Assembly: GCA_943348815.1 (NCBI GenBank)
Contig: CALQYT010000002.1
Coordinates: forward strand, 37,129 to 101,128
Length of the DNA: 64,000 nt
Direction: 5' to 3'
Origin: Candidatus Nomurabacteria bacterium
GTDB lineage: Bacteria > Patescibacteriota > Minisyncoccia > Phycocordibacterales > SBAW01
Under the pieces are notes generated by a model. That model had not been told where the DNA came from and ran no database searches. It worked only from the letters and a program-made list of their open reading frames with translations. Below, one piece after another: positions 2,818 through 59,538 of the stretch (positions are counted from its first letter, which is position 1; every line of letters begins with the position of its first letter). Made by a program: the position numbers and the translations under genes.

Positions 2818-3894
2818 ATGGCATCCTACTCCGCCAAGGCTACGCAGGATAAAAAAGGGGCTACTGAACGCACGCCTATGGCTTTGTATCGCAAGTACCG
2901 CCCCAGCGTATTTGGCGAGGTGCGCGGGCAAGAAGAGGTGGTGTCGGTGCTGCAAGCTGCGGTTAAAGATCGCACTATTGCGCACGCGTATTTGTTTGCG
3001 GGCGGGCGCGGCACGGGCAAAACATCGATGGCGCGCATTTTGGCCAAAGCGGTGGGCACGAACGACGAAGATGTTTATGAAATGGATGCGGCGAGCAATC
3101 GCGGCATCGACGAAGTGCGGCAGCTGCGCGAGGGTGTATCGACGCTGCCGTTTAGCTCGACCTACAAATTTTACATAATCGACGAAGCGCATGCGCTGAC
3201 GCGCGATGCGTGGGGCGCACTGCTAAAAACTCTTGAAGAGCCGCCCGAGCACGCTATTTTTGTATTGGCCACGACCGAACTTGATAAGGTGCCCGAAACG
3301 ATAGTCTCGCGCTGCCAGGTGTTTAGTTTTAAAAAGCCTTCGCACGCAACGCTCAAAAAGTTGGTGCTCGATGTCGCCAAAAAAGAAGGGGCAACGATAG
3401 AGCCCGCGGCCGCCGAACTTATTGCGCTCATGGGCGACGGCTCCTTCCGCGATACGCACGGGATTTTGCAAAAGGTGCTCACGGTCTCTGCTGATAGCAA
3501 ACTCACCGAAGCAGAAGTTGCCAAAGTGGTGGGCGCGCCCAAAGGTGCACTCGTGAATCAATTTGTCGAAGCGATGGGAGCCAAAAACACCGATACTGCG
3601 CTTAGCGTGCTGCAGCAGGCCACCCAGGGCGGGGTAGAGCCGCGTGTTTTTTGCCTCTTGGCGGTCGCCAAAGTGCGAGCAATCTTGCTGCTGCGCTTTG
3701 CCCCCAAACAAAAGGAGGCGCTGCTCGAGGAGTTTGGCCAAGATGACGTTAAATTTTTAGAGACGCTCGCCAAAGGAGCCCCGGCAATAAACGCCGCCCT
3801 GTTGGCCGAGCTTTTGACCGCACTTATCGAGATTCCGCGCTCGCCGCTACCGCAATTACCGCTCGAGTTGGCCCTCTACCGGGCCCTTGCGTAA
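2818..3894 (+). CDS. dnaX: DNA polymerase III subunit gamma/tau, compact form
   Basis: Contains 'YRPSVFGEVRGQEEVV...FAGGRGTGKTSMARILAKAV' (AAA+ clamp-loader Walker A) and 'YIIDEAHALT'. Only 358 aa, so the tau C-terminal domains are absent. The true start may be the internal Met at about 2878. Confidence 0.85.
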   Translation: MASYSAKATQDKKGATERTPMALYRKYRPSVFGEVRGQEEVVSVLQAAVKDRTIAHAYLFAGGRGTGKTSMARILAKAVGTNDEDVYEMDAASNRGIDEVRQLREGVSTLPFSSTYKFYIIDEAHALTRDAWGALLKTLEEPPEHAIFVLATTELDKVPETIVSRCQVFSFKKPSHATLKKLVLDVAKKEGATIEPAAAELIALMGDGSFRDTHGILQKVLTVSADSKLTEAEVAKVVGAPKGALVNQFVEAMGAKNTDTALSVLQQATQGGVEPRVFCLLAVAKVRAILLLRFAPKQKEALLEEFGQDDVKFLETLAKGAPAINAALLAELLTALIEIPRSPLPQLPLELALYRALA

Positions 3895-5580: not shown

Positions 5581-5641
5581 ATCGTGTTTCTATTCAAGAC
5601 CACGTTTTTCTGATATTCTCAAATCGTTATTGGGCATATAT

Positions 5642-5680
5642 TGGGGGATCGTCCCTGGCCGGGCAGGCTAACGGTAGGAC
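5642..5680 (+). repeat. Partial duplicate of the tRNA-Gln 5' half ('tgggggatcgtc'+15-nt insert+'taacggtaggac'), placed directly before the GIY-YIG start codon
   Basis: Compare 5642-5680 with tRNA-Gln 5930-5955. The 12-nt and 13-nt blocks are identical. They are separated by the insert 'cctggccgggcaggc'. Confidence 0.6.
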
Positions 5681-5926
5681 ATGCATTACCTTTATATTCT
5701 TCGAAGTCTTGCGGACAAAAAGCATTACGTGGGAATAACCACTGACTTAGGTAAACGTCTTCGTTATCACAATGCAGGAAGGGTGCGTTCAACGAAAGCA
5801 AGAATCCCCTTTGAGCTTTTGTATAAAGAAGTTTATGCTACAAGAGTTGAGGCCCGGGCTCGTGAGAAGTACTTGAAGAGCTATAAGGGTTCAAAAGAGA
5901 AACTCACAATTCTGGAAAACCTCTAA
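5681..5926 (+). CDS. GIY-YIG nuclease family protein (YhbQ/UPF0213-like, 81 aa)
   Basis: Contains 'MHYLYILRS...KHYVGITTDLGKRLRYHN', the GIY-YIG core. The stop codon lies 3 nt before tRNA-Gln. Confidence 0.8.
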   Translation: MHYLYILRSLADKKHYVGITTDLGKRLRYHNAGRVRSTKARIPFELLYKEVYATRVEARAREKYLKSYKGSKEKLTILENL

Positions 5927-32017: not shown

Positions 32018-33271
32018 ATGACGCTCGAGCAATTTAAGAAGAAGGCCAAGCAAATACCCGACTCGCCGGGAGTGTATTTCTTTCTTGGCCCGCCGAAGCC
32101 TCGGCGAAGGGGGCTTGGGCATACTAGAGAGATTCTCTACATTGGCAAGGCCACCAGTTTGCGCGACCGCGTGCGTAGCTACTTTGCTAACGATTTGGCC
32201 GAGACACGCGGGGCGCTGATTGTGCAAATGCTGGAGAAGGCAGTGTCTATTGATTTTAGAAAGACCGATTCGGTACTCGAAGCACTGTTGCTTGAATCGT
32301 CGCTGATACACTCGCACAAACCACCGCACAACACCGACTCCAAAGATGATAAGAGTTGGAATCATGTACTTATAACTGATGAAAATTTTCCCCAAGTGTT
32401 GGTAGTGCGGACGACCAATCTTGGGGAGTACAAGGCCAAAAAAATATTCGGTCCCTTCCCACATGGGCTCCAACTACGCGAGGCGATGAAATTAATCCGC
32501 CGAATATTTCCGTATCGCGATGAAAAATGCAAGCCAGGTCAAAAGAGGCCGTGCTTTAATCGCCAAATTGGTTTATGTCCCGGGGTCTGCACCGGCGAAA
32601 TTTCTGCAAAAGAATACCGCAAGACCGTGCGACACATTGTGTTGTTGTTTGAGGGCAAGAAAAAGCAACTCCTTAAGAGCTTGGCCAAAGAGATGCGCGC
32701 CGCCGCAAAAGAAGAAAATTTTGAACAAGCAAAAGAGCTTCACCGGCAACTATACGCACTGCAACATATCCAGGACATTTCGCTGATAAAATCCGAATAT
32801 CGAAATCCGAAATTTGATGGTTTAGCATATCGGATTGAGGCGTACGATATCGCACATCTGCAGGGTTCGGCTCATGTCGGAGTAATGACCGTAGTCGAGG
32901 GCGGGGAGGCGGCCAAAAGTCAGTATCGTAAGTTTAAAATCAAAACCGCCAAGCAGGGTGACGATCCGGGCGCCTTGCGCGAGGTGTTGAGTCGCCGCCT
33001 GGGGCACGACGAGTGGCCACTACCACGATTGATAGTGGTAGACGGCTCGACCGCGCAGATTAATGCCGCCCAAACGGTGCTTGCTGAGTACGGTATGAGT
33101 ATCCCGGTGGTCGGTGTAGTGAAGGACGAAAAGCATCGACCGCGCAATATTTTAGGTGGTCGCGAACTTATTAAAACTAAAGAACGCGAGATTTTGCTTG
33201 CCAATGCCGAAGCCCATCGGTTTGCTATTGGGTATCATCGCAACAAAAGTCGTAAGAATCTCGTTATATAA
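32018..33271 (+). CDS. uvrC: Excinuclease ABC subunit C, compact form (417 aa)
   Basis: The N-terminal GIY-YIG domain carries 'GVYFFLG...ILYIGKATSLRDRVRSYF'. A UVR motif follows. The C-terminal endonuclease domain carries 'YDIAHLQGSAHVGVM...VVDGSTAQ'. There is no C-terminal (HhH)2 region. Confidence 0.85.
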   Translation: MTLEQFKKKAKQIPDSPGVYFFLGPPKPRRRGLGHTREILYIGKATSLRDRVRSYFANDLAETRGALIVQMLEKAVSIDFRKTDSVLEALLLESSLIHSHKPPHNTDSKDDKSWNHVLITDENFPQVLVVRTTNLGEYKAKKIFGPFPHGLQLREAMKLIRRIFPYRDEKCKPGQKRPCFNRQIGLCPGVCTGEISAKEYRKTVRHIVLLFEGKKKQLLKSLAKEMRAAAKEENFEQAKELHRQLYALQHIQDISLIKSEYRNPKFDGLAYRIEAYDIAHLQGSAHVGVMTVVEGGEAAKSQYRKFKIKTAKQGDDPGALREVLSRRLGHDEWPLPRLIVVDGSTAQINAAQTVLAEYGMSIPVVGVVKDEKHRPRNILGGRELIKTKEREILLANAEAHRFAIGYHRNKSRKNLVI

Positions 33272-33280
33272 TTAACGGAT

Positions 33281-34243
33281 ATGCGCACAGTCGTAGCGGT
33301 AGTTCGCGGTGGCCCAAGCTCGGAGTACGGCGTGTCTCTAAAAACCGGCGCCTCGGTACTGGAATCGCTGGATAGAGAAAAGTACGAGCCGCGCGATATT
33401 TTTATTGATCGCATGGGCAATTGGCACTTGCACGGAGTGTTGGTACCACCCGAAAAGGCTCTTTTTGGCACCGATGTAGCGTTTAATGCCCTGCATGGCG
33501 AGTTTGGCGAGGATGGCGGCGTACAGCGACTTTTTGAGCGCCTAGGCATGCCTTATACGGGCTCTGGCCCGGTTTCATCGGCGACGGCCTTTAACAAACA
33601 TCTGACCAAAGAGCAGGCGCGGAGGTTTGGCGTCAAAGTGGCTCATGGGGTAGTGGCAGACCGCTCGGATGATATCGAGGCCCTCAGTCATCAGCTATTC
33701 CGTAGTATGCCGCACCCGGTGATTGTAAAGCCGGTCGCGGGCGGATCGTCGGTAGCAACGACAATCGCTCATAATTTTCAACAACTACAAAATGCGCTCG
33801 GTACGGCATTTGATCACTCGCCGCAGGCATTGGTTGAGGAATTTATCAAAGGTCGCGAGGCGACGGTTGGTGTGATTGATAATTTTAGGAATCAAAAGAC
33901 CTACGCGCTTATGCCGGTCGAAATAATCCCGCCCTCGCATCAGCCTTTCTTTTCGTACGATGCGAAATACGGCGGCGAAACTATCGAGCGCGTGCCGGGC
34001 AACTTTTCGCATGCAGAAACTACTGAGTTAGAAAAGATAGCAAAGTTGGTGCACGAAGGTCTCAACCTCAGCCACTACTCACGCTCTGACTTTATTATTT
34101 CGCGTCGGGGTATTTATTTTCTCGAAGTTAATACGTTGCCGGGTCTTACCTCTGAGTCTCTGCTGCCTAAAGCATTGCGTGCAGTAGGCTCTTCTCTCGG
34201 ACAATTCATCGACCATGTGATACAGTTGGCCCGCCGTCGCTAA
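33281..34243 (+). CDS. ddl: D-alanine--D-alanine ligase
   Basis: ATP-grasp protein. Contains 'VVRGGPSSEYGVSLKTG', 'LHGEFGEDGGVQRLFE' and 'FLEVNTLPG'. Confidence 0.9.
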   Translation: MRTVVAVVRGGPSSEYGVSLKTGASVLESLDREKYEPRDIFIDRMGNWHLHGVLVPPEKALFGTDVAFNALHGEFGEDGGVQRLFERLGMPYTGSGPVSSATAFNKHLTKEQARRFGVKVAHGVVADRSDDIEALSHQLFRSMPHPVIVKPVAGGSSVATTIAHNFQQLQNALGTAFDHSPQALVEEFIKGREATVGVIDNFRNQKTYALMPVEIIPPSHQPFFSYDAKYGGETIERVPGNFSHAETTELEKIAKLVHEGLNLSHYSRSDFIISRRGIYFLEVNTLPGLTSESLLPKALRAVGSSLGQFIDHVIQLARRR

Positions 34244-34273
34244 AGCTATGGCGGGGCAAGCCCGCAAAACGAA

Positions 34274-39582: not shown

Positions 39583-39628
39583 CTTTTTATTTTGACTAAT
39601 TTCCGCTATAGTTTCCGTGCGCACCCTT

Positions 39629-39672
39629 AGTCCCGACGCTTGGGTCGGGATCCCGACAGAATCGTCGGGACT
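39629..39672. repeat. Nested palindrome, a potential cruciform or double hairpin
   Basis: Outer stem AGTCCCGACG (39629-38) pairs with CGTCGGGACT (39663-72). The inner perfect palindrome is GTCGGGATCCCGAC (39644-57). Confidence 0.45.
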
Positions 39673-39695
39673 CAGAGATAGGAAGTGTGCCAAAG

Positions 39696-39769
39696 GCACC
39701 CTTAGCTCAGTTGGTTAGAGCGCACCCTTCACACGGGTGAGGTCGGGAGTTCGAGCCTCTCAGGGTGCA
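39696..39769 (+). tRNA. tRNA-Val (anticodon CAC), no encoded CCA
   Basis: Acceptor GCACCCT/AGGGTGC, D-arm TAGCTCAGTTGGTTAGAGC, anticodon loop TTCACAC, T-loop TTCGAGC. Confidence 0.85.
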
Positions 39770-39794
39770 CTGCTTCGCCAAGGCTTCGCAGTGC
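39770..39794 (+). repeat. 25-nt tRNA-trailer repeat, copy 1 (CTGCTTCGCCAAGGCTTCGCAGTGC)
   Basis: Begins immediately after the tRNA-Val discriminator. Together with the tRNA 3' end it forms GCACTGC...GCAGTGC. Confidence 0.6.
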
Positions 39795-39812
39795 GAGCAC
39801 AGGCAAGCGATT

Positions 39813-39883
39813 CGGGCTGTAGTATACCGGTAGTACGCGCGCTTCGGGTGCGTGAAGACTGGGTTCGATTCCCAGCAGCCCGA
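39813..39883 (+). tRNA. tRNA-Pro (anticodon CGG), no encoded CCA
   Basis: C1:G72 acceptor CGGGCTG/CAGCCCG, anticodon loop TTCGGGT, T-loop TTCGATT. Confidence 0.8.
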
Positions 39884-39909
39884 CAAAGTGATATAGTTTT
39901 TTGGCTTAA

Positions 39910-39980
39910 GGGCCCATAGTAAAGTGGTATTACGCGTCATTCGCATTGACGAGGCTCGAGTCCGATTCTCGATGGGTCCA
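39910..39980 (+). tRNA. tRNA-Ala (anticodon CGC), no encoded CCA
   Basis: Acceptor GGGCCCA/TGGGTCC with G3:U70. Anticodon loop TTCGCAT. Confidence 0.8.
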
Positions 39981-40005
39981 CTGCTTCGCCAAGGCTTCGC
40001 AGTGC
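39981..40005 (+). repeat. 25-nt tRNA-trailer repeat, copy 2
   Basis: Identical to copy 1. Begins right after the tRNA-Ala(CGC) discriminator. Confidence 0.6.
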
Positions 40006-40020
40006 AGGCACAAGAAGCCA

Positions 40021-40050
40021 GCAAAACTCCCCAAATGGGGAGTTTTGCTT
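40021..40050 (+). terminator. Rho-independent terminator
   Basis: AAAACTCCCC-AAAT-GGGGAGTTTT perfect hairpin followed by GCTTT. Confidence 0.6.
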
Positions 40051-40106
40051 TAAGTGGAGAAGCAGTGTCCTGCGTAGCTTTAGCGGAGCAGGGCTATAAT
40101 CGAATC

Positions 40107-40346
40107 ATGCACTATGTGTATATTCTCCAAAGTCAGGTGGATGGAAGTTTATATGTGGGTGTCACCGAGGATATAAAACGTCGTTTTGTCGAACACAATA
40201 ATGGTAATGCTAAATATTCAAGCTCGAAACGGCCTTATAAACTGAAATGGTTTTGTGCATTCCCAACGAAACAAAAGGCACTTATCTTCGAAAGATATCT
40301 AAAACACGGTTCCGGTTTTGCTTTTGCACGAAAACATTTAATTTAA
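40107..40346 (+). CDS. GIY-YIG nuclease family protein (YhbQ/UPF0213-like, 80 aa)
   Basis: 'MHYVYILQSQVDGSLYVGVTEDIKRRFVEHNNG'. The ORF-track call 39924-40346 runs through tRNA-Ala. The real start is the Met at 40107. Confidence 0.8.
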   Translation: MHYVYILQSQVDGSLYVGVTEDIKRRFVEHNNGNAKYSSSKRPYKLKWFCAFPTKQKALIFERYLKHGSGFAFARKHLI

Positions 40347-40616
40347 AAATAAAAAACAGACATCGTTAGTTAGTGTCTGTCAGCTTGCGGCATGAATTTG
40401 CCGATCTTCGCCAGAATTTCCCCGGCGATCGATGTGGATCAGATCACCTTCTTTCGGGTAGGTTCTGGGTATATCGAATTTGATCTGGAAGCTCGGGGCT
40501 TCCAGGACCCGTTCGGTGACGTCTAGCCGCCATACCATTTGTCGTGCCCTTTTGTGCGTACCCTACTAGAAACTACAGAAGATTAAGAAAAGATACAATC
40601 GCGTTATACTAGGGAT

Positions 40617-41162
40617 ATGGGGGGTTCAGAAACGATAAGCATTGCGGTGGCGCTGTTGGCGCTGTTTTTGGTGTTGAGTACGGCGCTCAAGTATGCCGTG
40701 CGCGATAACTTTCATCGCACGAGGCTTATCATGACGCTGTTTTTCTTTTTCATTATCATCACGCTCACGATGGCGTTTTGGCGCTACACGCTCGCCTCGT
40801 TGCCCTCTACCATCCCTGCGGCGCTTGCAGGCGTGGCGCTTGGCTATGTGGCGGGAGTGCGCGAGGCGCAACGCAAATTAATGGAGCAAGGAGTTGAGTT
40901 TTATCGCGAGCACTTCCATCACGTGCACTTTATGGATATCCAAAACCTCAGTTGGTGGAGCGTTATTAACTTTTACTCCGTGATGGGCGCATTAGTGTTG
41001 ATTAACCTGGTAGGATTGAGCACCGTATTTTTTGTTGGGCGCGAGTCGTGGGCTATTGCGAGCTGTGTGGTGGGCGCCCTCCTTTTAGGATCCTTGGTGC
41101 CGTATCTCGTGCACCTGTGGAGCCTGCCTGCCGGCAAGGCAGGTATTAAAGCAGCGGACTAG
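40617..41162 (+). CDS. Hypothetical polytopic membrane protein
   Basis: 181 aa with five predicted TM helices. Confidence 0.4.
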   Translation: MGGSETISIAVALLALFLVLSTALKYAVRDNFHRTRLIMTLFFFFIIITLTMAFWRYTLASLPSTIPAALAGVALGYVAGVREAQRKLMEQGVEFYREHFHHVHFMDIQNLSWWSVINFYSVMGALVLINLVGLSTVFFVGRESWAIASCVVGALLLGSLVPYLVHLWSLPAGKAGIKAAD

Positions 41163-41847
41163 CAATAAGCGCTGCACAAGCAAACAAAAGTACGATAAGC
41201 GAGCTGTGGAATATGCGGCGCGCGATCTGGCGTGTGTGGTTGCTTGGTGTTTGGTGGACAAATAACGGCACTCCGGCTGCTTGGTATTCTTCGTAGCGAT
41301 AATACGCAATTGCCATAAAGTGCGGTATCTGCCATAAAAATAGCGCCGCAAAAAGTATGAACGCATACCAATCGAGCAGGTTGGTTGCTGCAACATATCC
41401 GACGACCGGCGGCATGGCACCGGCGAGTGCTCCAACCCAAAGCGCGTGCGGGGTTTTTGGTTTAAGGGGGGTGTAAACGAAGACGTAAATCACAAATCCC
41501 AACAAACCAAATACCAAACTTAAAAGGTTAATCTTCCACAAAAGGACAATACCCAGAGTTAAAAATGCTGAAGCAAAGAGTATCGCGTGCCGTACACTGA
41601 TGCGCCCTGCAGCGATGGCGCGGTTGTTGGTGCGCGCCATTTTGGCATCCATGTAGCGATCGGAGACGTTATTGCAAACACAGGCGGCGGCGACTACGCA
41701 CGACAACCCGATCAACAGTTCCCAAAAAGGAATACTTGCGCTGAGCGTAGTCGAACCAAAAAAGAATCCCGCTACTGCCGCGAGCGCGTTGCCCGCCACC
41801 ATGCGGGGTTTGGCGAGTTCGAAATAATCACGGAGCGTCCTAGTCAA
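41146..41847 (-). CDS. cyoE: Protoheme IX farnesyltransferase (heme O synthase)
   Basis: UbiA-family topology and motifs ('NNVSDRYMDAKMARTNNR'). It is the last gene of the cyo operon. Confidence 0.85.
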   Translation of the reverse strand: MTRTLRDYFELAKPRMVAGNALAAVAGFFFGSTTLSASIPFWELLIGLSCVVAAACVCNNVSDRYMDAKMARTNNRAIAAGRISVRHAILFASAFLTLGIVLLWKINLLSLVFGLLGFVIYVFVYTPLKPKTPHALWVGALAGAMPPVVGYVAATNLLDWYAFILFAALFLWQIPHFMAIAYYRYEEYQAAGVPLFVHQTPSNHTRQIARRIFHSSLIVLLFACAALIASPLL

Positions 41848-42175
41848 GTTGGTGTTCGGGGGATGGCTCGCCTATAAACATTTCGGATTGATTGTGTTGG
41901 AGATTGCTCATGATCCATAGCGAGCCACCAACCACGAGCACGACTATCAAGATTGCAAAACCATAGACAAATTTGTTCCACCCATTGCCTTGAGGTAGGT
42001 GCAAGAAATACACGGTTTGTACCAACAGTTGAGCCACCGCAAACAGCGGTAATACAACATAGAGCAGCTCGTGAGGAATTGCCGTGTGATTCATATGCAC
42101 ATGCATCCCCACCAATCCAAAACTCAAAAGAGTAAATAAGAGCGAGAGGATCAGGCCGTCAAAATAGTGCTTCAT
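41840..42175 (-). CDS. cyoD: Cytochrome o quinol oxidase subunit IV
   Basis: Roughly 110-aa 3-TM protein directly after cyoC. The start is taken at 'MKHYFDGL', which overlaps the cyoC stop as ATGA. Confidence 0.55.
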   Translation of the reverse strand: MKHYFDGLILSLLFTLLSFGLVGMHVHMNHTAIPHELLYVVLPLFAVAQLLVQTVYFLHLPQGNGWNKFVYGFAILIVVLVVGGSLWIMSNLQHNQSEMFIGEPSPEHQLD

Positions 42176-42666
42176 ATAATTCCAAAGAGATACACAAAGG
42201 TGAAGATAAAGATCCAGATGATGTCGAGGAAGTGCCAAAAGAGCACGAGACGCTGCAGTTGATAAAACCGTTGGGTGACGAGCATCACCAGCATCCACAA
42301 ACATCCTGCGGCAACATGCAGGCCGTGCGTGCCGACGAGGGCAAAAAATGAGGAGAGGTAGGCCGAGTGAGAAGGTCCAAAACCCTCGAGCATTAAATTT
42401 TTAAATTCGTAGACTTCCAACCCAAGAAAGCCCAAGCCAAGCAGAAGGGTCAGTATTAGAAAAGTATTTTGTTTTTTAGTGACAAAAGCGAGCCCGACCG
42501 TAAAACTTGAGATAAGCAGGGCGAGGGTTTGGACAAAGACGAACGGTAACGAAAAAATATCTTCGCTGCCGCGCAACACCGCAAACGTAGCAAAGAGGCT
42601 CGCAAAGAGCACGCAATCGCTCATGATATAGAGCCAGAATCCCAGCGTTGTTTTGTCAGTCGGCAT
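42172..42666 (-). CDS. cyoC: Cytochrome o quinol oxidase subunit III
   Basis: Five TM helices, '[21 protein letters not shown]'. Heme-copper oxidase subunit III family. Confidence 0.8.
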
Positions 42667-53651: not shown

Positions 53652-53933
53652 TTGCAAGACGACATGTACTACGTCTATTTGTTGAAAAGTAGAAAAGATA
53701 AAAAATTGTACACGGGATACACTGACAACTTGCGTCGTCGTCTTGCAGAACATACCTCTGGTAAAAATATTTCTACCCGTTCACGTTTACCTCTCGATTT
53801 GATATATTACGAAGCGTACTTGTCGAAGGCTGACGCGATATCCCGAGAGCAGCGTCTCAAATCGTCACTTGGTGCTCGAACTGCACTTAATCGCAGAATA
53901 GGGGATAGCCTTCGACTAGGCCGTTCAGTGTGA
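53652..53933 (+). CDS. GIY-YIG nuclease family protein (YhbQ/UPF0213-like)
   Basis: 'MYYVYLLKSRKDKKLYTGYTDNLRRRLAEHTSG'. The stop TGA lies 1 nt before tRNA-Ala(GGC). Confidence 0.8.
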   Translation: MQDDMYYVYLLKSRKDKKLYTGYTDNLRRRLAEHTSGKNISTRSRLPLDLIYYEAYLSKADAISREQRLKSSLGARTALNRRIGDSLRLGRSV

Positions 53934-58626: not shown

Positions 58627-59538
58627 ATGTCAGGGGGCGAATTGCTGCAGCTAAGCATCTATATTTTTCAGCAAGCGGGCATCATGCTCGGCATTGGCGC
58701 GCAGACCGTAATACTCTGTACGCATTTGCTCGTGCTGCACCGCCATGAAAGTGAGTCGACTGAAGTTACGCTCGAGAGCGCCGCACGCACCACGTTGTGG
58801 ATTAGCTTTGCCCTGATTATATTGTCGGGCTTGGGTGCGGTTGCGCTGCATTGGCAGGCGGTGCAGTTGGAAATTTTGCTCGCGCCCGCGTTCTTGTTTA
58901 AGTGGATACTGATCTTGGTACTCTTGTTTGCCCTCGCGCTCGAAAGCACTCTTGGACATTGGAATGATGCCGCGCGCGGTTTTGTGGGGGCAACCTGGTA
59001 TGCACTTTTTGTGATACATACACTCGGGCTTGCGAGTTCGTGGCTAACGCTCGGCATACTGTATGCGGTGTGGCTTGTCTTTTTTGGCCTCGTGTGGAGT
59101 GTGTTTGTGTGGATGTTGCGCCGACACAATGGGGGAGTTATTCCTGAAATTAAAAAAGAAGTTCCAAAGCCTGTTCCTCCGCCCAAGCCCTTGCCCCCTC
59201 CTCCACCTATACCAAAACCTATACCTCCGCCACCTCCGTCCCCACCTCCCAAACCCATTCCTCCCCCCGCACCTTTACCGATGGTAATACCGCCCCCGCC
59301 TCCTCCTAAACCAGTACCACCACCTGCTCCGGTCGTACCTCCACCTCCTGCCTTGCCCGCCGTAGCCTTGGCGAAGGAGGGACCTAAACCTCTGGTCCCT
59401 CAGCCGATAATCGCCACAACGCCTGCACCTACCACTACAGAGCCTGTCCATAACCCCGACGTCCCCGCATTGCGCATCATGCCGCAGAAGCCTGAGGATA
59501 TCGGCAACGCGACACGCCCTCAGGTGGTAAAATCCTAA
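58627..59538 (+). CDS. Polytopic membrane protein with a poly-proline C-terminal tail
   Basis: Five TM helices followed by 'KPVPPPKPLPPPPPIPKPIPPPPPSPPPKPIPPPAPLP...'. Confidence 0.45.
   Translation: MSGGELLQLSIYIFQQAGIMLGIGAQTVILCTHLLVLHRHESESTEVTLESAARTTLWISFALIILSGLGAVALHWQAVQLEILLAPAFLFKWILILVLLFALALESTLGHWNDAARGFVGATWYALFVIHTLGLASSWLTLGILYAVWLVFFGLVWSVFVWMLRRHNGGVIPEIKKEVPKPVPPPKPLPPPPPIPKPIPPPPPSPPPKPIPPPAPLPMVIPPPPPPKPVPPPAPVVPPPPALPAVALAKEGPKPLVPQPIIATTPAPTTTEPVHNPDVPALRIMPQKPEDIGNATRPQVVKS

Follow-up and report, generated by a model that had tools for sequence, protein, structure and literature searches.

Two tRNA genes in the 64-kb stretch of DNA analysed here (the window), tRNA-Val(CAC) and tRNA-Ala(CGC), are each followed directly by the same 25-nt hairpin element, which raises the question of whether this element belongs to the tRNA precursors or has been placed behind the genes by a mobile system. 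The sequence-only reading of the locus had offered three options: a 3'-processing or RNase Z guide, an attenuator, and a mobile mini-repeat. Our analysis upholds the last of these and neither of the other two. We consider it probable (about 0.6) that hairpins of this type bound cassettes encoding a small GIY-YIG nuclease at the exact 3' ends of tRNA and tmRNA genes, with the copy behind tRNA-Ala(CGC) (copy 2) as the left end of such a cassette and the copy behind tRNA-Val (copy 1) as a solo hairpin.

Hairpins at tRNA 3' ends and elsewhere

The 25-mer CTGCTTCGCCAAGGCTTCGCAGTGC is present on the forward strand at 39770-39794 and 39981-40005 with 0 mismatches, confirming the reported identity of the two copies (Table 1). 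No further match with up to 3 mismatches was found in the window (0 expected in shuffles). Since the Rfam tRNA matches end at 39769 and 39980, both 25-mers begin one base past the discriminator A73. This placement exactly at the mature tRNA 3' end had been noted before, and it recurs across phyla. The bases after both discriminators are CTG; neither tRNA encodes CCA, also as described.

The last bases (G)CA of tRNA-Val form the outermost pairs of copy 1 (CA CTGC TTC GC CAAG GC TTC GCAG TG C), and the predicted fold contains 7 Watson-Crick pairs (GCACTGC/GCAGTGC) plus a U-G pair (-15.1 kcal/mol). The 7-bp stem that the sequence-only reading had drawn with GCA thus applies to the Val copy but not to the Ala copy: because tRNA-Ala ends in CCA and not GCA, the predicted stem has 6 bp there (CACTGC/GCAGTG, -10.7 kcal/mol). 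The suggested competition with the acceptor stem would be marginal: tRNA and hairpin share only 2-3 nt, and the acceptor stem is still formed in the minimum free energy fold of the Val precursor (117 nt). A short tail (GTGC-AG-GCAC, 40001-40012, forward strand) shares the 3' arm of copy 2 and has an equivalent behind copy 1 (39790-39801); in other genomes its counterpart leads on to another hairpin, as in the tandem units of L057 and L127. Copy 1 stands alone between the genes for tRNA-Val and tRNA-Pro.

Table 1. Coordinates of tRNA genes, hairpins and the nuclease module in the window
Feature	Position	Strand	Remarks
Diverged hairpin copy, TCCTAC TCC GC CAAG GC TAC GCAGGA	2824-2849	+	28.7 bits, E 1e-5
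Diverged hairpin copy	32089-32113	-	24 bits, E 3e-4; away from tRNAs
Weak, diverged hairpin copy	34230-34255	+	19.6 bits, E 5e-3; overlaps stop codon of ORF 33281-34243
tRNA-Val(CAC)	39696-39769	+	Rfam; ARAGORN within 1 nt; without encoded CCA
Hairpin copy 1, 'Y' orientation	39768-39794	+	exact 25-mer; covariance model 40.6 bits, E 4e-9
tRNA-Pro(CGG)	39813-39883	+	Rfam/ARAGORN; without hairpin
tRNA-Ala(CGC)	39910-39980	+	Rfam; ARAGORN within 1 nt; without encoded CCA
Hairpin copy 2, 'Y' orientation	39979-40005	+	exact 25-mer, covariance model; left end of module
Perfect 14-bp hairpin, T-rich 3' side	40020-40054	+	terminator-like; between Y and R hairpins
TGGAGAAGCAGTG	40055-40067	+	inverted complement of hairpin 5' arm CACTGCTTC(G)CCA
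Partner hairpin, 'R' orientation	40068-40093	+	covariance-model match on - strand, 36.2 bits, E 7e-8
TATAAT hexamer	40095-40100	+	6 nt 5' of start codon
Stand-alone GIY-YIG nuclease, 79 aa, UPF0213 / SLX1-like	40107-40346	+	Pfam PF01541
Ancestral tRNA-Ala trailer and terminator resume	40342-40446	+	right boundary of insertion
Diverged hairpin copy, CCCTCC TTC GC CAAG GC TAC GGCGGG	59356-59381	-	30.1 bits, E 5e-6; away from tRNAs

In the family to which the two copies belong, the outer stem covaries, the C-G and GC pairs are invariant, and the internal loop is 3x3, reading TNC/TNC on one strand and GNA/GNA on the other. The exact 22-nt core was found in at least 120 loci from Alphaproteobacteria, Verrucomicrobiota, Planctomycetota, Patescibacteria, Omnitrophota, Bacteroidota and others; Brevundimonas sp. 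A19_0, Phenylobacterium sp. J367 and Hyphococcus luteus are among the isolates with the core. Among 77 distinct 26-mers, 94.8% of cells were paired and all 6 outer pairs covaried (covariation score 0.508, compared to 0.126 in shuffles, 0/500 of which reached 0.508). The rules of the hairpin scans were strict and set by hand; the two outer pairs left free by the scan were Watson-Crick in 69-71% of the sequences, and GAA/GAA and TTC/TTC were the top 3x3 loop classes in an unbiased scan. The architecture of the hairpin and its covariation are thereby established. In 83% of copies, two or more further complementary pairs (CC/GG, TC/GA, CA/TG, TT/AA) flank the core, and flanks outside the stem were unconserved except for C/T at +3 (C in 95/125 copies). 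In Rfam 15, only the tRNAs reached the gathering score and the hairpins had no meaningful match at E <=10. A literature search by sequence string returned primers only.

The purine strand, CT-GCGAAGC-CTTG-GCGAAGC-AG, resembles the GCGNAGC mini-hairpins with sheared G-A pairs described by Hirao and co-workers, and their rule, GNA with any N, is followed in the hairpin family. GNA mini-hairpin motifs serve for recognition both in the promoter of phage N4 and in single-stranded origins (PMC13037366). Unlike in mini-hairpin DNA, covariation here favours a single long hairpin whose internal loop is GNA/GNA. A fold into two mini-hairpins (GCGNAGC twice) was set aside, because the base before C-GNA-G covaries with the distant arm and not with the near GC.

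The expectation that copies always abut tRNAs was not borne out. Among the matches listed, 26/125 exact-core copies lay within 300 nt of a tRNA, so most are not tRNA-linked, and about 12 directly adjoin the stop codon of a housekeeping ORF. The covariance model identified 7 family copies in the window, including four diverged copies away from tRNAs, of which the one at 2824-2849 is intergenic, just 5' of the probable dnaX start. Left flanks showed only a two-fold excess of A (CCA, TGA) when inspected for an insertion target motif, which is too small to account for the preference for gene ends.

Insertion of a GIY-YIG module behind tRNA-Ala(CGC)

Copy 2 opens an insertion of about 361 bp (39981 to about 40341) between tRNA-Ala(CGC) and its original terminator. 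The insertion consists of the Y hairpin, a terminator-like hairpin, the R hairpin, a TATAAT hexamer and a nuclease gene, in this order. The Y hairpin stands at the same position in L041, L073, L110, L114, L127, L134 and L135. Hairpins like the terminator-like one at 40020-40054, which a terminator consensus scan flagged on the reverse strand only, are also found in L041, L073, L110, L114, L127 and L148. GAAGCAGTG is kept directly 5' of the R hairpin in related Patescibacteria modules. The R hairpin (TCCTGC GTA GC TTTA GC GGA GCAGGG) carries the GNA/GNA internal loop, and its central 22 nt (40070-40091) are identical to the reverse complement of the core at 18/22 positions. Most of the Patescibacteria modules read have a similar hexamer 6-9 nt ahead of the start codon; in L041 the distance is 1 nt. 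By its sequence and position, TATAAT is possibly the -10 box of a leaderless mRNA, and a promoter scan did not call it as a full promoter. Three features had escaped the sequence-only reading: the neighbouring GIY-YIG gene, the inverted partner of the hairpin at 40068-40093, and the 3x3 loop inside the stem.

The predicted protein is a minimal domain of 79 aa with no auxiliary or DNA-binding domain. It matched PF01541 with E 3e-18 (66 bits, cut-off 22.6) and the PDB entries 1zg2 (E 4e-14), 1ywl (E 1e-7) and SLX1 chains (E 2e-7 to 2e-5), which puts it, among solved structures, closest to UPF0213 proteins and the nuclease domain of SLX1. Y5, Y16, G18, R26, H30 and E62 are invariant in 26 aligned nucleases and present in the window protein; from the motif, we read invariant residues of the Y5/Y16/R26/E62 type as the predicted active site. 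A profile of the subfamily matched about 4,300 clusters at 50% identity with E below 1e-10. Stand-alone Slx1-like or COG2827 proteins have been described as of unknown function or as putative repair proteins (PMC1564403, PMC1839093).

Relatives provide the empty sites. L208 is syntenic (CopC, tRNA-Val/Pro/Ala, a 178-aa gene, UbiA) and has bare tRNA trailers, with neither hairpin nor GIY-YIG gene; the tRNA-Ala(CGC) site of L209 is likewise empty. In a local alignment, the sequence at 40342-40446 scored 46 against the L208 trailer, compared to 25.3 +/- 4.1 in shuffles (maximum 40). The conserved host site is filled in the window and empty in L208 and L209, and the module is thereby established as an insertion relative to empty orthologous sites.

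The same comparison bears on whether the hairpin is a functional tRNA 3'-trailer RNA, serving in processing (RNase Z/E), as an exonuclease block, or as a terminator or attenuator. We regard this as unlikely, since the hairpin is absent from the orthologous trailers of tRNA-Val and tRNA-Ala(CGC) in L208 and of tRNA-Ala(CGC) in L209, where it had been expected, and also from 4/6 tRNAs in the window, while the diverged window copies and most copies elsewhere are not at tRNAs at all. Termination in particular would do harm at copy 1, which sits inside a tight tRNA cluster; no U-tract was seen behind the hairpins (CGAGCACAGG or CAGGCACAAG comes next), the terminator scan did not call them, and copy 2 is followed by its own separate terminator-like hairpin. 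Additionally, the purine-rich, better structured form is the antisense strand, and the predicted Val precursor retains its acceptor stem. A trailer function would explain why the tRNA-linked hairpin always has the orientation of the tRNA and starts at the first base past the mature 3' end (after CCA or discriminator), why tmRNA genes follow the same abutment rule, and why a stable RNA hairpin is predicted. The hairpin may also have been co-opted secondarily to shield the tRNA from the insertion.

Coupling to nuclease genes, flanking repeats and relocation

The association of hairpin and nuclease gene was examined at 80 metagenomic GIY-YIG loci, the best-scoring of 571 confirmed matches and thus not a random sample. 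Of the loci with at least 300 nt upstream, 52/62 had a same-strand tRNA or tmRNA upstream, 31/62 a strict Y hairpin and 28/62 a strict R hairpin 5' of the start, mostly within about 10 nt. At the loci with a strict Y hairpin whose upstream RNA gene was called by ARAGORN, the hairpin started at a gap of -4 to +2 from the 3' end of that gene in all but one. The R hairpin is inverted relative to Y and lies before the nuclease gene, sometimes after it; in most modules the gene is outside the Y-R pair and not between the hairpins. Around the 80 genes, hairpins occurred only at -300 to -1 and at about +40 to +160 past the stop, with approximately none elsewhere within +/-1.5 kb. The same module order was found in Kaiserbacteria, Minisyncoccota and Brevundimonas. 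Positional coupling of RNA-gene end, Y hairpin, R hairpin and GIY-YIG gene is thus tight across distant phyla.

Some modules are flanked by direct repeats of the tRNA end. The order tRNA, Y hairpin, GIY-YIG gene, R hairpin and a repeat of the tRNA 3' end was seen in L185, L197, L179 and L195. With up to 3/16 mismatches allowed, flanking tRNA-end repeats were detected in 7/45 loci and in 0/45 in two controls. A terminator-like hairpin behind the right-hand repeat in L148 and L188 is read as the original terminator. Repeats were detectable in about 1 in 6 modules; in the window, a search for a downstream repeat found neither the tRNA-Ala nor the tRNA-Val 3' end duplicated. Further, closely related modules relocate between tRNAs: among nuclease pairs with at least 70% identity, 21/32 were located behind different tRNAs, and one pair identical over 76 compared residues was located behind Ala(CGC) and Ala(TGC).

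These results have to be weighed against an ordinary REP/REPIN-type repeat that is mobilised by an unlinked enzyme (RAYT), with the GIY-YIG gene merely sharing the landing zone behind tRNAs. The likeness to the REP/REPIN-RAYT systems of Enterobacteria and Pseudomonas is considerable: both involve short imperfect palindromes (about 26-35 nt) that are dispersed, mostly intergenic and located at gene ends near stop codons, often as inverted doublets with a spacer, and both include a single small gene flanked by repeats and a recognition that probably needs a folded single strand. REPs are also known to abut, and even supply, stop codons (PMC3733652), and 113/120 exact-core loci, among the matches listed, have no GIY-YIG gene nearby. 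We nevertheless find an unlinked enzyme improbable. Coincidence would not yield so sharp a positional profile around the 80 GIY-YIG genes, the order Y-R-gene is common to Patescibacteria through Brevundimonas, and some elements have the gene between both hairpins, with flanking repeats. One end of REP palindromes is marked by the conserved tetranucleotide GTAG or CGTC (Di Nocera et al. 2013), whereas the hairpins here lack a terminal tag of either kind (GTAG is only internal, in some R-form variants) and what they conserve is a 3x3 GNA/GNA loop inside the stem. A REP family is as a rule confined to one lineage, while this hairpin core is identical across phyla. Unlike RAYTs, which are HUH Y1 transposases, the enzyme here is a GIY-YIG (SLX1-like) nuclease, and exact targeting of tRNA/tmRNA 3' ends with duplication of the tRNA end also sets the two systems apart.

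It is very improbable that the GIY-YIG protein is a domesticated repair or RNA-metabolism factor, not mobile today, with the hairpins as its operator or RBS-sequestering sites: although the R hairpin covers the presumed promoter in Patescibacteria and in other lineages has GGAGG in its 3' arm, 5-10 nt ahead of the start codon, and a second GIY-YIG subfamily holds a constant position before tRNA-Gln in four genomes, this is opposed by the empty sites in L208 and L209, the tRNA-end direct repeats that flank modules, the near-identical nuclease genes behind different tRNAs, and the hairpins far from any such GIY-YIG gene. A C. crescentus COG2827 paralogue has been reported with an SOS box (PMC1839093); this hints at a host repair role, in line with domestication, and counts against mobilisation.

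Proposed mobilisation and related systems

We infer that the nuclease mobilises the hairpins. In the mechanism we propose, this homologue of a structure-specific endonuclease would recognise or cut extruded hairpins or folded tRNA-gene DNA, with the purine strand and its sheared G-A pairs in GNA/GNA as the recognised form. Both the flanking duplication and the exact abutment would follow from staggered cuts across the final 15-24 nt of the tRNA gene. The nuclease would mobilise its own cassette as well as gene-less hairpin singles and doublets in trans; action in trans has to be assumed because, among the matches listed, 7/120 exact-core loci have the nuclease gene in the 8 kb covered. Copy 1 is then best read, by analogy, as comparable to a solo REP or half a REPIN, that is, as non-autonomous. 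Several points count against mobilisation: the gene mostly lies outside the Y-R pair, flanking repeats are detectable in only about 1 in 6 modules and not in the window, a 79-aa protein without a DNA-binding domain would be an unusual candidate for site-specific insertion, and a target in tRNA structure leaves the exact abutment to housekeeping stop codons unexplained. Two other routes were considered. Retro-insertion primed by tRNA was rejected, because CCA-less tRNAs show no added CCA at the junction. A phage vector is unlikely, given that 2.9 million viral contigs yielded only 3 hairpin matches and 4 gene matches.

A bolder version of the cassette reading, possible but rather doubtful, would make these the smallest autonomous bacterial DNA transposon-like elements, with about 350-400 bp, two inverted hairpin ends with a GNA/GNA loop, one SLX1-like GIY-YIG nuclease of 79-91 aa, and insertion exactly at tRNA and tmRNA 3' ends with a 15-24-bp duplication of the tRNA end. 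If this were true, such elements would have spread across phyla and seeded genomes with gene-less hairpin singles and doublets; they would be a GIY-YIG counterpart of RAYT/REPIN and provide a function for UPF0213 / COG2827 proteins.

Other known systems share single features with the module. Phage T4 SegB, a free-standing GIY-YIG homing endonuclease, is likewise encoded among tRNA genes, is present or absent between relatives and is presumed to spread by DNA breakage and repair. However, Seg proteins and I-TevI exceed 200 aa and have a DNA-binding domain, whereas the proteins here consist of the catalytic domain only (79-91 aa), and Seg genes are phage-borne and have neither hairpin boundaries nor gene-less repeats, unlike the present family, which is almost absent from viral contigs. 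Tyrosine-integrase islands in tRNA and tmRNA genes also insert in the 3' part and leave a functional tRNA; their duplication of the gene's 3' end has a counterpart in 7/45 modules elsewhere and none in the window. With about 0.36-0.4 kb, the fully read modules here are too short to hold an integrase gene, and the insertion in the window contains none (about 361 bp with one 79-aa ORF). In L127, a host gene is the next one called past the nuclease gene. In addition, the direct repeats here, unlike those of integrase islands, extend as far as the mature 3' end, with the element beginning one base further on. The window nuclease is by sequence a member of UPF0213 (COG2827, YhbQ; PDB 1zg2, 1ywl, SLX1 domain), while no link to tRNA genes or hairpin repeats was found in the literature searched. 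Likewise, searches of the literature on GIY-YIG proteins with REP/RAYT or tRNA/tmRNA, on UPF0213/YhbQ/COG2827 and on Patescibacteria turned up no account of the arrangement.

The reproducible tie of Slx1-like proteins to hairpins and tRNA/tmRNA ends gives these proteins a concrete, testable function. If the nuclease does mobilise the hairpins, this would be a second, independent origin, beside RAYT/REPIN, of a lifestyle in which a single gene goes with a population of hairpin repeats, and the first such system with a GIY-YIG fold. The core, being exactly conserved across phyla, can be used as a tracer of horizontal transfer.

The hairpins also affect gene calling. The ORFs containing 'LLRQGFAV' (39737-39919 and the N-terminal portion of 39924-40346) extend over tRNA genes and were rightly regarded as artefacts of the repeat; the real start of the nuclease gene is the Met at 40107, where all homologues start. 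Read-through of hairpins thus generates spurious ORFs or N-terminal extensions (LLRQGFAV, LRQGFAGQA), a common annotation artefact.

Hairpins at the tRNA ends and their family

The 25-mer CTGCTTCGCCAAGGCTTCGCAGTGC occurs twice in the window with 0 mismatches, behind tRNA-Val(CAC) (copy 1) and behind tRNA-Ala(CGC) (copy 2). Allowing up to 3 mismatches revealed no further copy in the window, and shuffled sequences gave no match. The tRNA ends called by Rfam and ARAGORN directly precede the repeats, and therefore both start at the base directly behind the discriminator, as the sequence-only reading had proposed; it was also correct that neither tRNA gene encodes a CCA tail. In the predicted fold, a symmetric 3x3 internal loop (UUC/UUC) separates the outer stem from a 2-bp GC stem, which is capped by a CAAG loop; copy 1 has 7 Watson-Crick pairs and one U-G pair. 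The proposed 7-bp stem with a tRNA-terminal GCA holds for the Val copy; the Ala copy forms only 6 pairs, because tRNA-Ala ends in CCA, not GCA. Competition with the acceptor stem appears marginal, as the minimum-energy fold of the Val precursor (117 nt) is predicted to keep this stem intact. The ORFs containing LLRQGFAV were rightly suspected to be artefacts: both cross tRNA genes, and the true gene starts at 40107.

Features of the window discussed here (positions in nt)
Feature	Position	Basis or remark
tRNA-Val(CAC)	39696-39769	Rfam, ARAGORN
tRNA-Ala(CGC)	39910-39980	Rfam, ARAGORN
Hairpin copy 1, Y	39770-39794	Covariance model, strong
Hairpin copy 2, Y	39981-40005	Covariance model, strong
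R hairpin	40068-40093	Covariance model, strong
Diverged family copies, not at tRNAs	2824, 32089, 34230, 59356	Covariance model
79-aa ORF, stand-alone GIY-YIG domain	40107-40346	PF01541; 3' of tRNA-Ala(CGC)
Other small GIY-YIG genes	5681-5926, 53664-53933	
Split copy of tRNA-Gln 5' part	5641-5680	
Pseudo 5' fragment of tRNA-Val	39621-39695	5' of tRNA-Val
Region of the diverged copy (2824) at dnaX	2818-2880	
Sequence like GIY-YIG gene	40550-40570	Weak tblastn match
Candidate UbiA/CyoE-type and oxidase ORFs	41146-42666	Minus strand

The repeat's 22-nt core was found exactly at at least 120 loci in a search of one genome per species, comprising Alphaproteobacteria (Caulobacter, Brevundimonas and Phenylobacterium, isolates among them), Verrucomicrobiota, Planctomycetota, Patescibacteria, Omnitrophota, Bacteroidota, Armatimonadota and others. 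The core flanks vary among copies yet remain complementary, extending the stem by at least 2 Watson-Crick pairs in 104 of 125 copies (CC/GG 56, TC/GA 31, CA/TG 14, TT/AA 3). Looser scans recovered longer inner stems with compensating changes (GCC/GGC, GCGC/GCGC, GCCC/GGGC, GCTCC/GGAGC) and 3-nt loop strands TTC, TAC, TCC or TGC; when hairpins of the same geometry were scanned for without bias, GAA/GAA and TTC/TTC were far ahead of all other non-complementary loop pairs. Across 77 distinct 26-mers, 94.8% of cells were paired and all six outer pairs covaried, with a covariation score of 0.508 compared to 0.126 when shuffled (0 of 500 shuffles reached 0.508) and at most 0.10 in shifted registers. 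The two outermost pairs, not demanded by the scan, were Watson-Crick in 69-71% of sequences; the C-G closing pair, the GC/GC of the inner stem and the T.C in both strands of the loop varied little or not at all. Rfam contained no family matching the hairpins. The opposite strand, CTGC GAA GC CTTG GC GAA GCAG, presents a GNA/GNA loop between C-G and G-C and contains GCGAAGC twice, a word known as 'mini-hairpin DNA' (reviewed in PMC13037366). The covariation favours one long hairpin rather than two mini-hairpins.

The copies are not always located at tRNA 3' ends, an association the sequence-only reading had put up for checking: 26 of 125 exact-core copies have a tRNA within 300 nt (chance estimated at about 1%), and a covariance model made from the family and run on the window returned four diverged copies away from tRNAs. 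Eleven copies adjoin a tRNA 3' end (gap -1 to +2), all with the TTC strand read along the tRNA (Y orientation) and starting after CCA if encoded, otherwise after the discriminator; two further exact-core copies adjoin tmRNA 3' ends. Inverted copies (R, with GNA/GNA loop strands) form the second hairpin in inverted doublets, 12-110 nt 3' of a tRNA. About 12 Y copies start right behind the TGA stop (TGA, then TCCTGC...) of unrelated housekeeping genes, which from their translations we take to be proS, thrB (two genomes), murA, virB4, a lolE-like gene, queC, nagZ, fliM, an ompR-like gene and ftsE.

Some copies were observed in other settings. A hairpin just 5' of the likely true dnaX start (MALYRKYRP...) spuriously lengthens the longest ORF (2818-3894) at its N-terminal end. 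In a Zixibacteria locus (L042, 24-119), an R hairpin adjoins the 5' end of tRNA-Lys, not a 3' end. Two Kaiserbacteria loci (L121 and L123, ~1710-1780) carry a post-tmRNA Y hairpin with a complete terminator-like hairpin nested in its loop, CACTGCTTCGC[gaaaagcccgcacaaatgtgcgggctttt]CGCTTCGCAGTG; therefore the loop tolerates, or attracts, insertions. In Brevundimonas (L020, L032, L056, L067, L103) the core is framed by a further repeated context, ...CCCCTCCACC[core]GGTCCCCCTCCCCATC...GGGGAGG, which suggests composite repeats made of several hairpin types. Tandem arrays were seen in L032 (period 221 nt) and L120 (period 102 nt).

A conserved module with a small GIY-YIG gene

The 79-aa ORF begins sixteen bases past the R hairpin. 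By sequence, its product belongs to the UPF0213/SLX1 branch (1zg2, E 4e-14; SLX1, E 2e-7), and all family-invariant GIY-YIG-type residues are found in it. Patescibacteria carry homologues, as do Alphaproteobacteria (~50% identity), Brevundimonas among them; both are among the hairpin-bearing groups.

Starting from the gene, we used the best 80 of 571 metagenomic homologue loci, 62 of them with at least 300 nt of upstream sequence. A same-strand tRNA or tmRNA lay upstream in 52 of the 62, ending mostly 90-230 nt from the start codon; 14 amino-acid identities are represented among the tRNAs, with Ala (17) and tmRNA (8) the commonest. Strict Y hairpins were detected in 31/62 loci and, where ARAGORN called an upstream RNA gene, started at a gap of -4 to +2 from its end in all loci but one. 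Strict R hairpins preceded the start codon in 28/62, most often by no more than ~10 nt. Over +/-1.5 kb, strict hairpins were confined to -300 to -1 plus a few R ~40-160 nt past the stop; at other positions their count was essentially zero. The order tRNA/tmRNA, Y, spacer, R, gene is common to three distant lineages, Kaiserbacteria and Minisyncoccota (both SmpB-tmRNA loci) and a Brevundimonas genome (tRNA-Leu). We refer to the two hairpins and the gene, set at an RNA 3' end, as the module; its architecture is conserved and has mobility-like features.

Most Patescibacteria modules read carry a TATAAT hexamer 6-9 nt ahead of the start codon, just past the R hairpin; other lineages have GGAGG in the 3' arm of this hairpin, 5-10 nt before the start. 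The R hairpin therefore occupies a position from which control of expression would also be possible. Many database proteins of the family are annotated with 20-60 additional N-terminal residues, probably read-through of upstream hairpins as in the window's 140-aa ORF.

Insertion and probable movement of the module

The window lies in a Patescibacteria genome, and the nearest homologues of its CopC protein carry the names Adlerbacteria, Kaiserbacteria or Paceibacterota. The syntenic locus L208, from a relative, shares tRNA-Val(CAC), tRNA-Pro(CGG) and tRNA-Ala(CGC) with the window and encodes a CopC-like protein 54% identical to the window's, with no hairpin 3' of tRNA-Val or tRNA-Ala and no GIY-YIG gene; in a second relative (L209) the tRNA-Ala(CGC) trailer also lacks the hairpin. 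The element is absent from these orthologous trailers. Window 40342-40446 matches the trailer and terminator of L208 (alignment score 46; shuffles 25 +/- 4, maximum 40), and therefore ~361 bp (39981 to ~40341) were inserted between tRNA-Ala and the original terminator. The window holds a structured hairpin repeat and a cassette inserted at its tRNA-Ala.

In several loci the gene lies inside the hairpin pair (tRNA, Y, GIY-YIG gene, R). A second copy of the tRNA's last 15-17 nt follows the R hairpin in L185, L197, L179 and L195, and L148 and L188 carry tmRNA/tRNA 3'-end copies on both sides of the whole Y-R-gene module, with a terminator-like hairpin past the right-hand copy that we read as the original terminator. 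A downstream copy of the RNA 3' end (at most 3/16 mismatches) was present in 7/45 testable loci compared to 0/45 in two controls. Among nuclease pairs at least 70% identical, 21/32 lie behind different RNA genes, including a pair identical across 76 compared residues (Ala-CGC and Ala-TGC) and pairs 82-83% identical (Met/Val, Val/Tyr). The earlier suggestion of a mobile mini-repeat is supported and considerably extended by the unfilled sites in relatives, the direct repeats and the relocation between tRNAs, whereas the alternatives raised with it, a processing element or an attenuator, were not supported. Hairpin and GIY-YIG family are nearly absent from viral contigs; the module is unlikely to be phage-borne.

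The sequence TTTTGTGCGTACCCTAC, 3' of the cassette, resembles the gene's own 40251-40267 (82% identity); it may be what is left of another, decayed cassette, or the likeness may be due to chance.

Proposed mechanism and related systems

We propose that the SLX1-like nuclease, which has no DNA-binding domain, probably recognises extruded hairpins or folded tRNA-gene DNA and would cut at single-stranded/double-stranded DNA junctions. If it cut at the 3' boundary of the tRNA and close to the T-loop, a 15-24-nt duplication and exact abutment would result, and gene-less doublets and singles such as copy 1 may have been mobilised in trans as non-autonomous derivatives. This mechanism does not account for the hairpins that directly follow stop codons. 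The hairpin link gives a very large family of orphan nucleases a testable function.

The closest analogue is REP/REPIN with RAYT, in which imperfect palindromes are likewise dispersed, form inverted doublets and accompany a single small gene; here, however, the enzyme has another fold, the core is common to many phyla, and the REP terminal tag GTAG/CGTC (PMC3733652) is lacking. Targeting of tRNA ends is new relative to that system. Free-standing GIY-YIG homing endonucleases of the T4 SegB type likewise lie among tRNA genes, but are much larger, phage-borne and without hairpins. Duplication of the tRNA end, seen in some modules though not at the window's own, is also a trait of integrase-borne islands, which depend on an integrase. 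Stand-alone Slx1-like proteins were described as minimal and of unknown role in a 2006 superfamily survey (PMC1564403), and three COG2827 genes were left unexplained in a Caulobacter repair-gene survey (PMC1839093). We found no description of the hairpin/GIY-YIG/tRNA-end arrangement in searches that covered a part of the journals, so that an earlier description is possible.

All three small GIY-YIG genes of the window touch tRNA genes, and an identical GIY-YIG paralogue is present on a 137,928-bp ENA contig. The two others belong to another subfamily (~37% identical) and end 3-4 nt 5' of tRNA-Gln(TTG) and tRNA-Ala(GGC). The tRNA-Gln-side gene is directly preceded by a duplicate of the initial ~24 nt of tRNA-Gln, split by a small hairpin, TGGGGGATCGTC[CCTGGCCGGGCAGGC]TAACGGTAGGAC; the same split copy and hairpin precede the gene at 601 in three other Patescibacteria loci (L222, L223, L224; proteins 60-65% identical). 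This arrangement resembles a 5'-side equivalent of the modules seen at RNA 3' ends. The tRNA-Val fragment, GCACCCTTAG...CTCAG, is broken by two tandem 20-nt hairpins of a different type (TCCCGAC-GCTTGG-GTCGGGA and TCCCGAC-AGAATC-GTCGGGA) and is absent from L208. Farther downstream lie ORFs that by eye we take to encode a UbiA/CyoE-type prenyltransferase and cytochrome bo3 oxidase subunits, candidates that look notable for a Patescibacteria genome; a UbiA-family gene occupies the corresponding place in L208.
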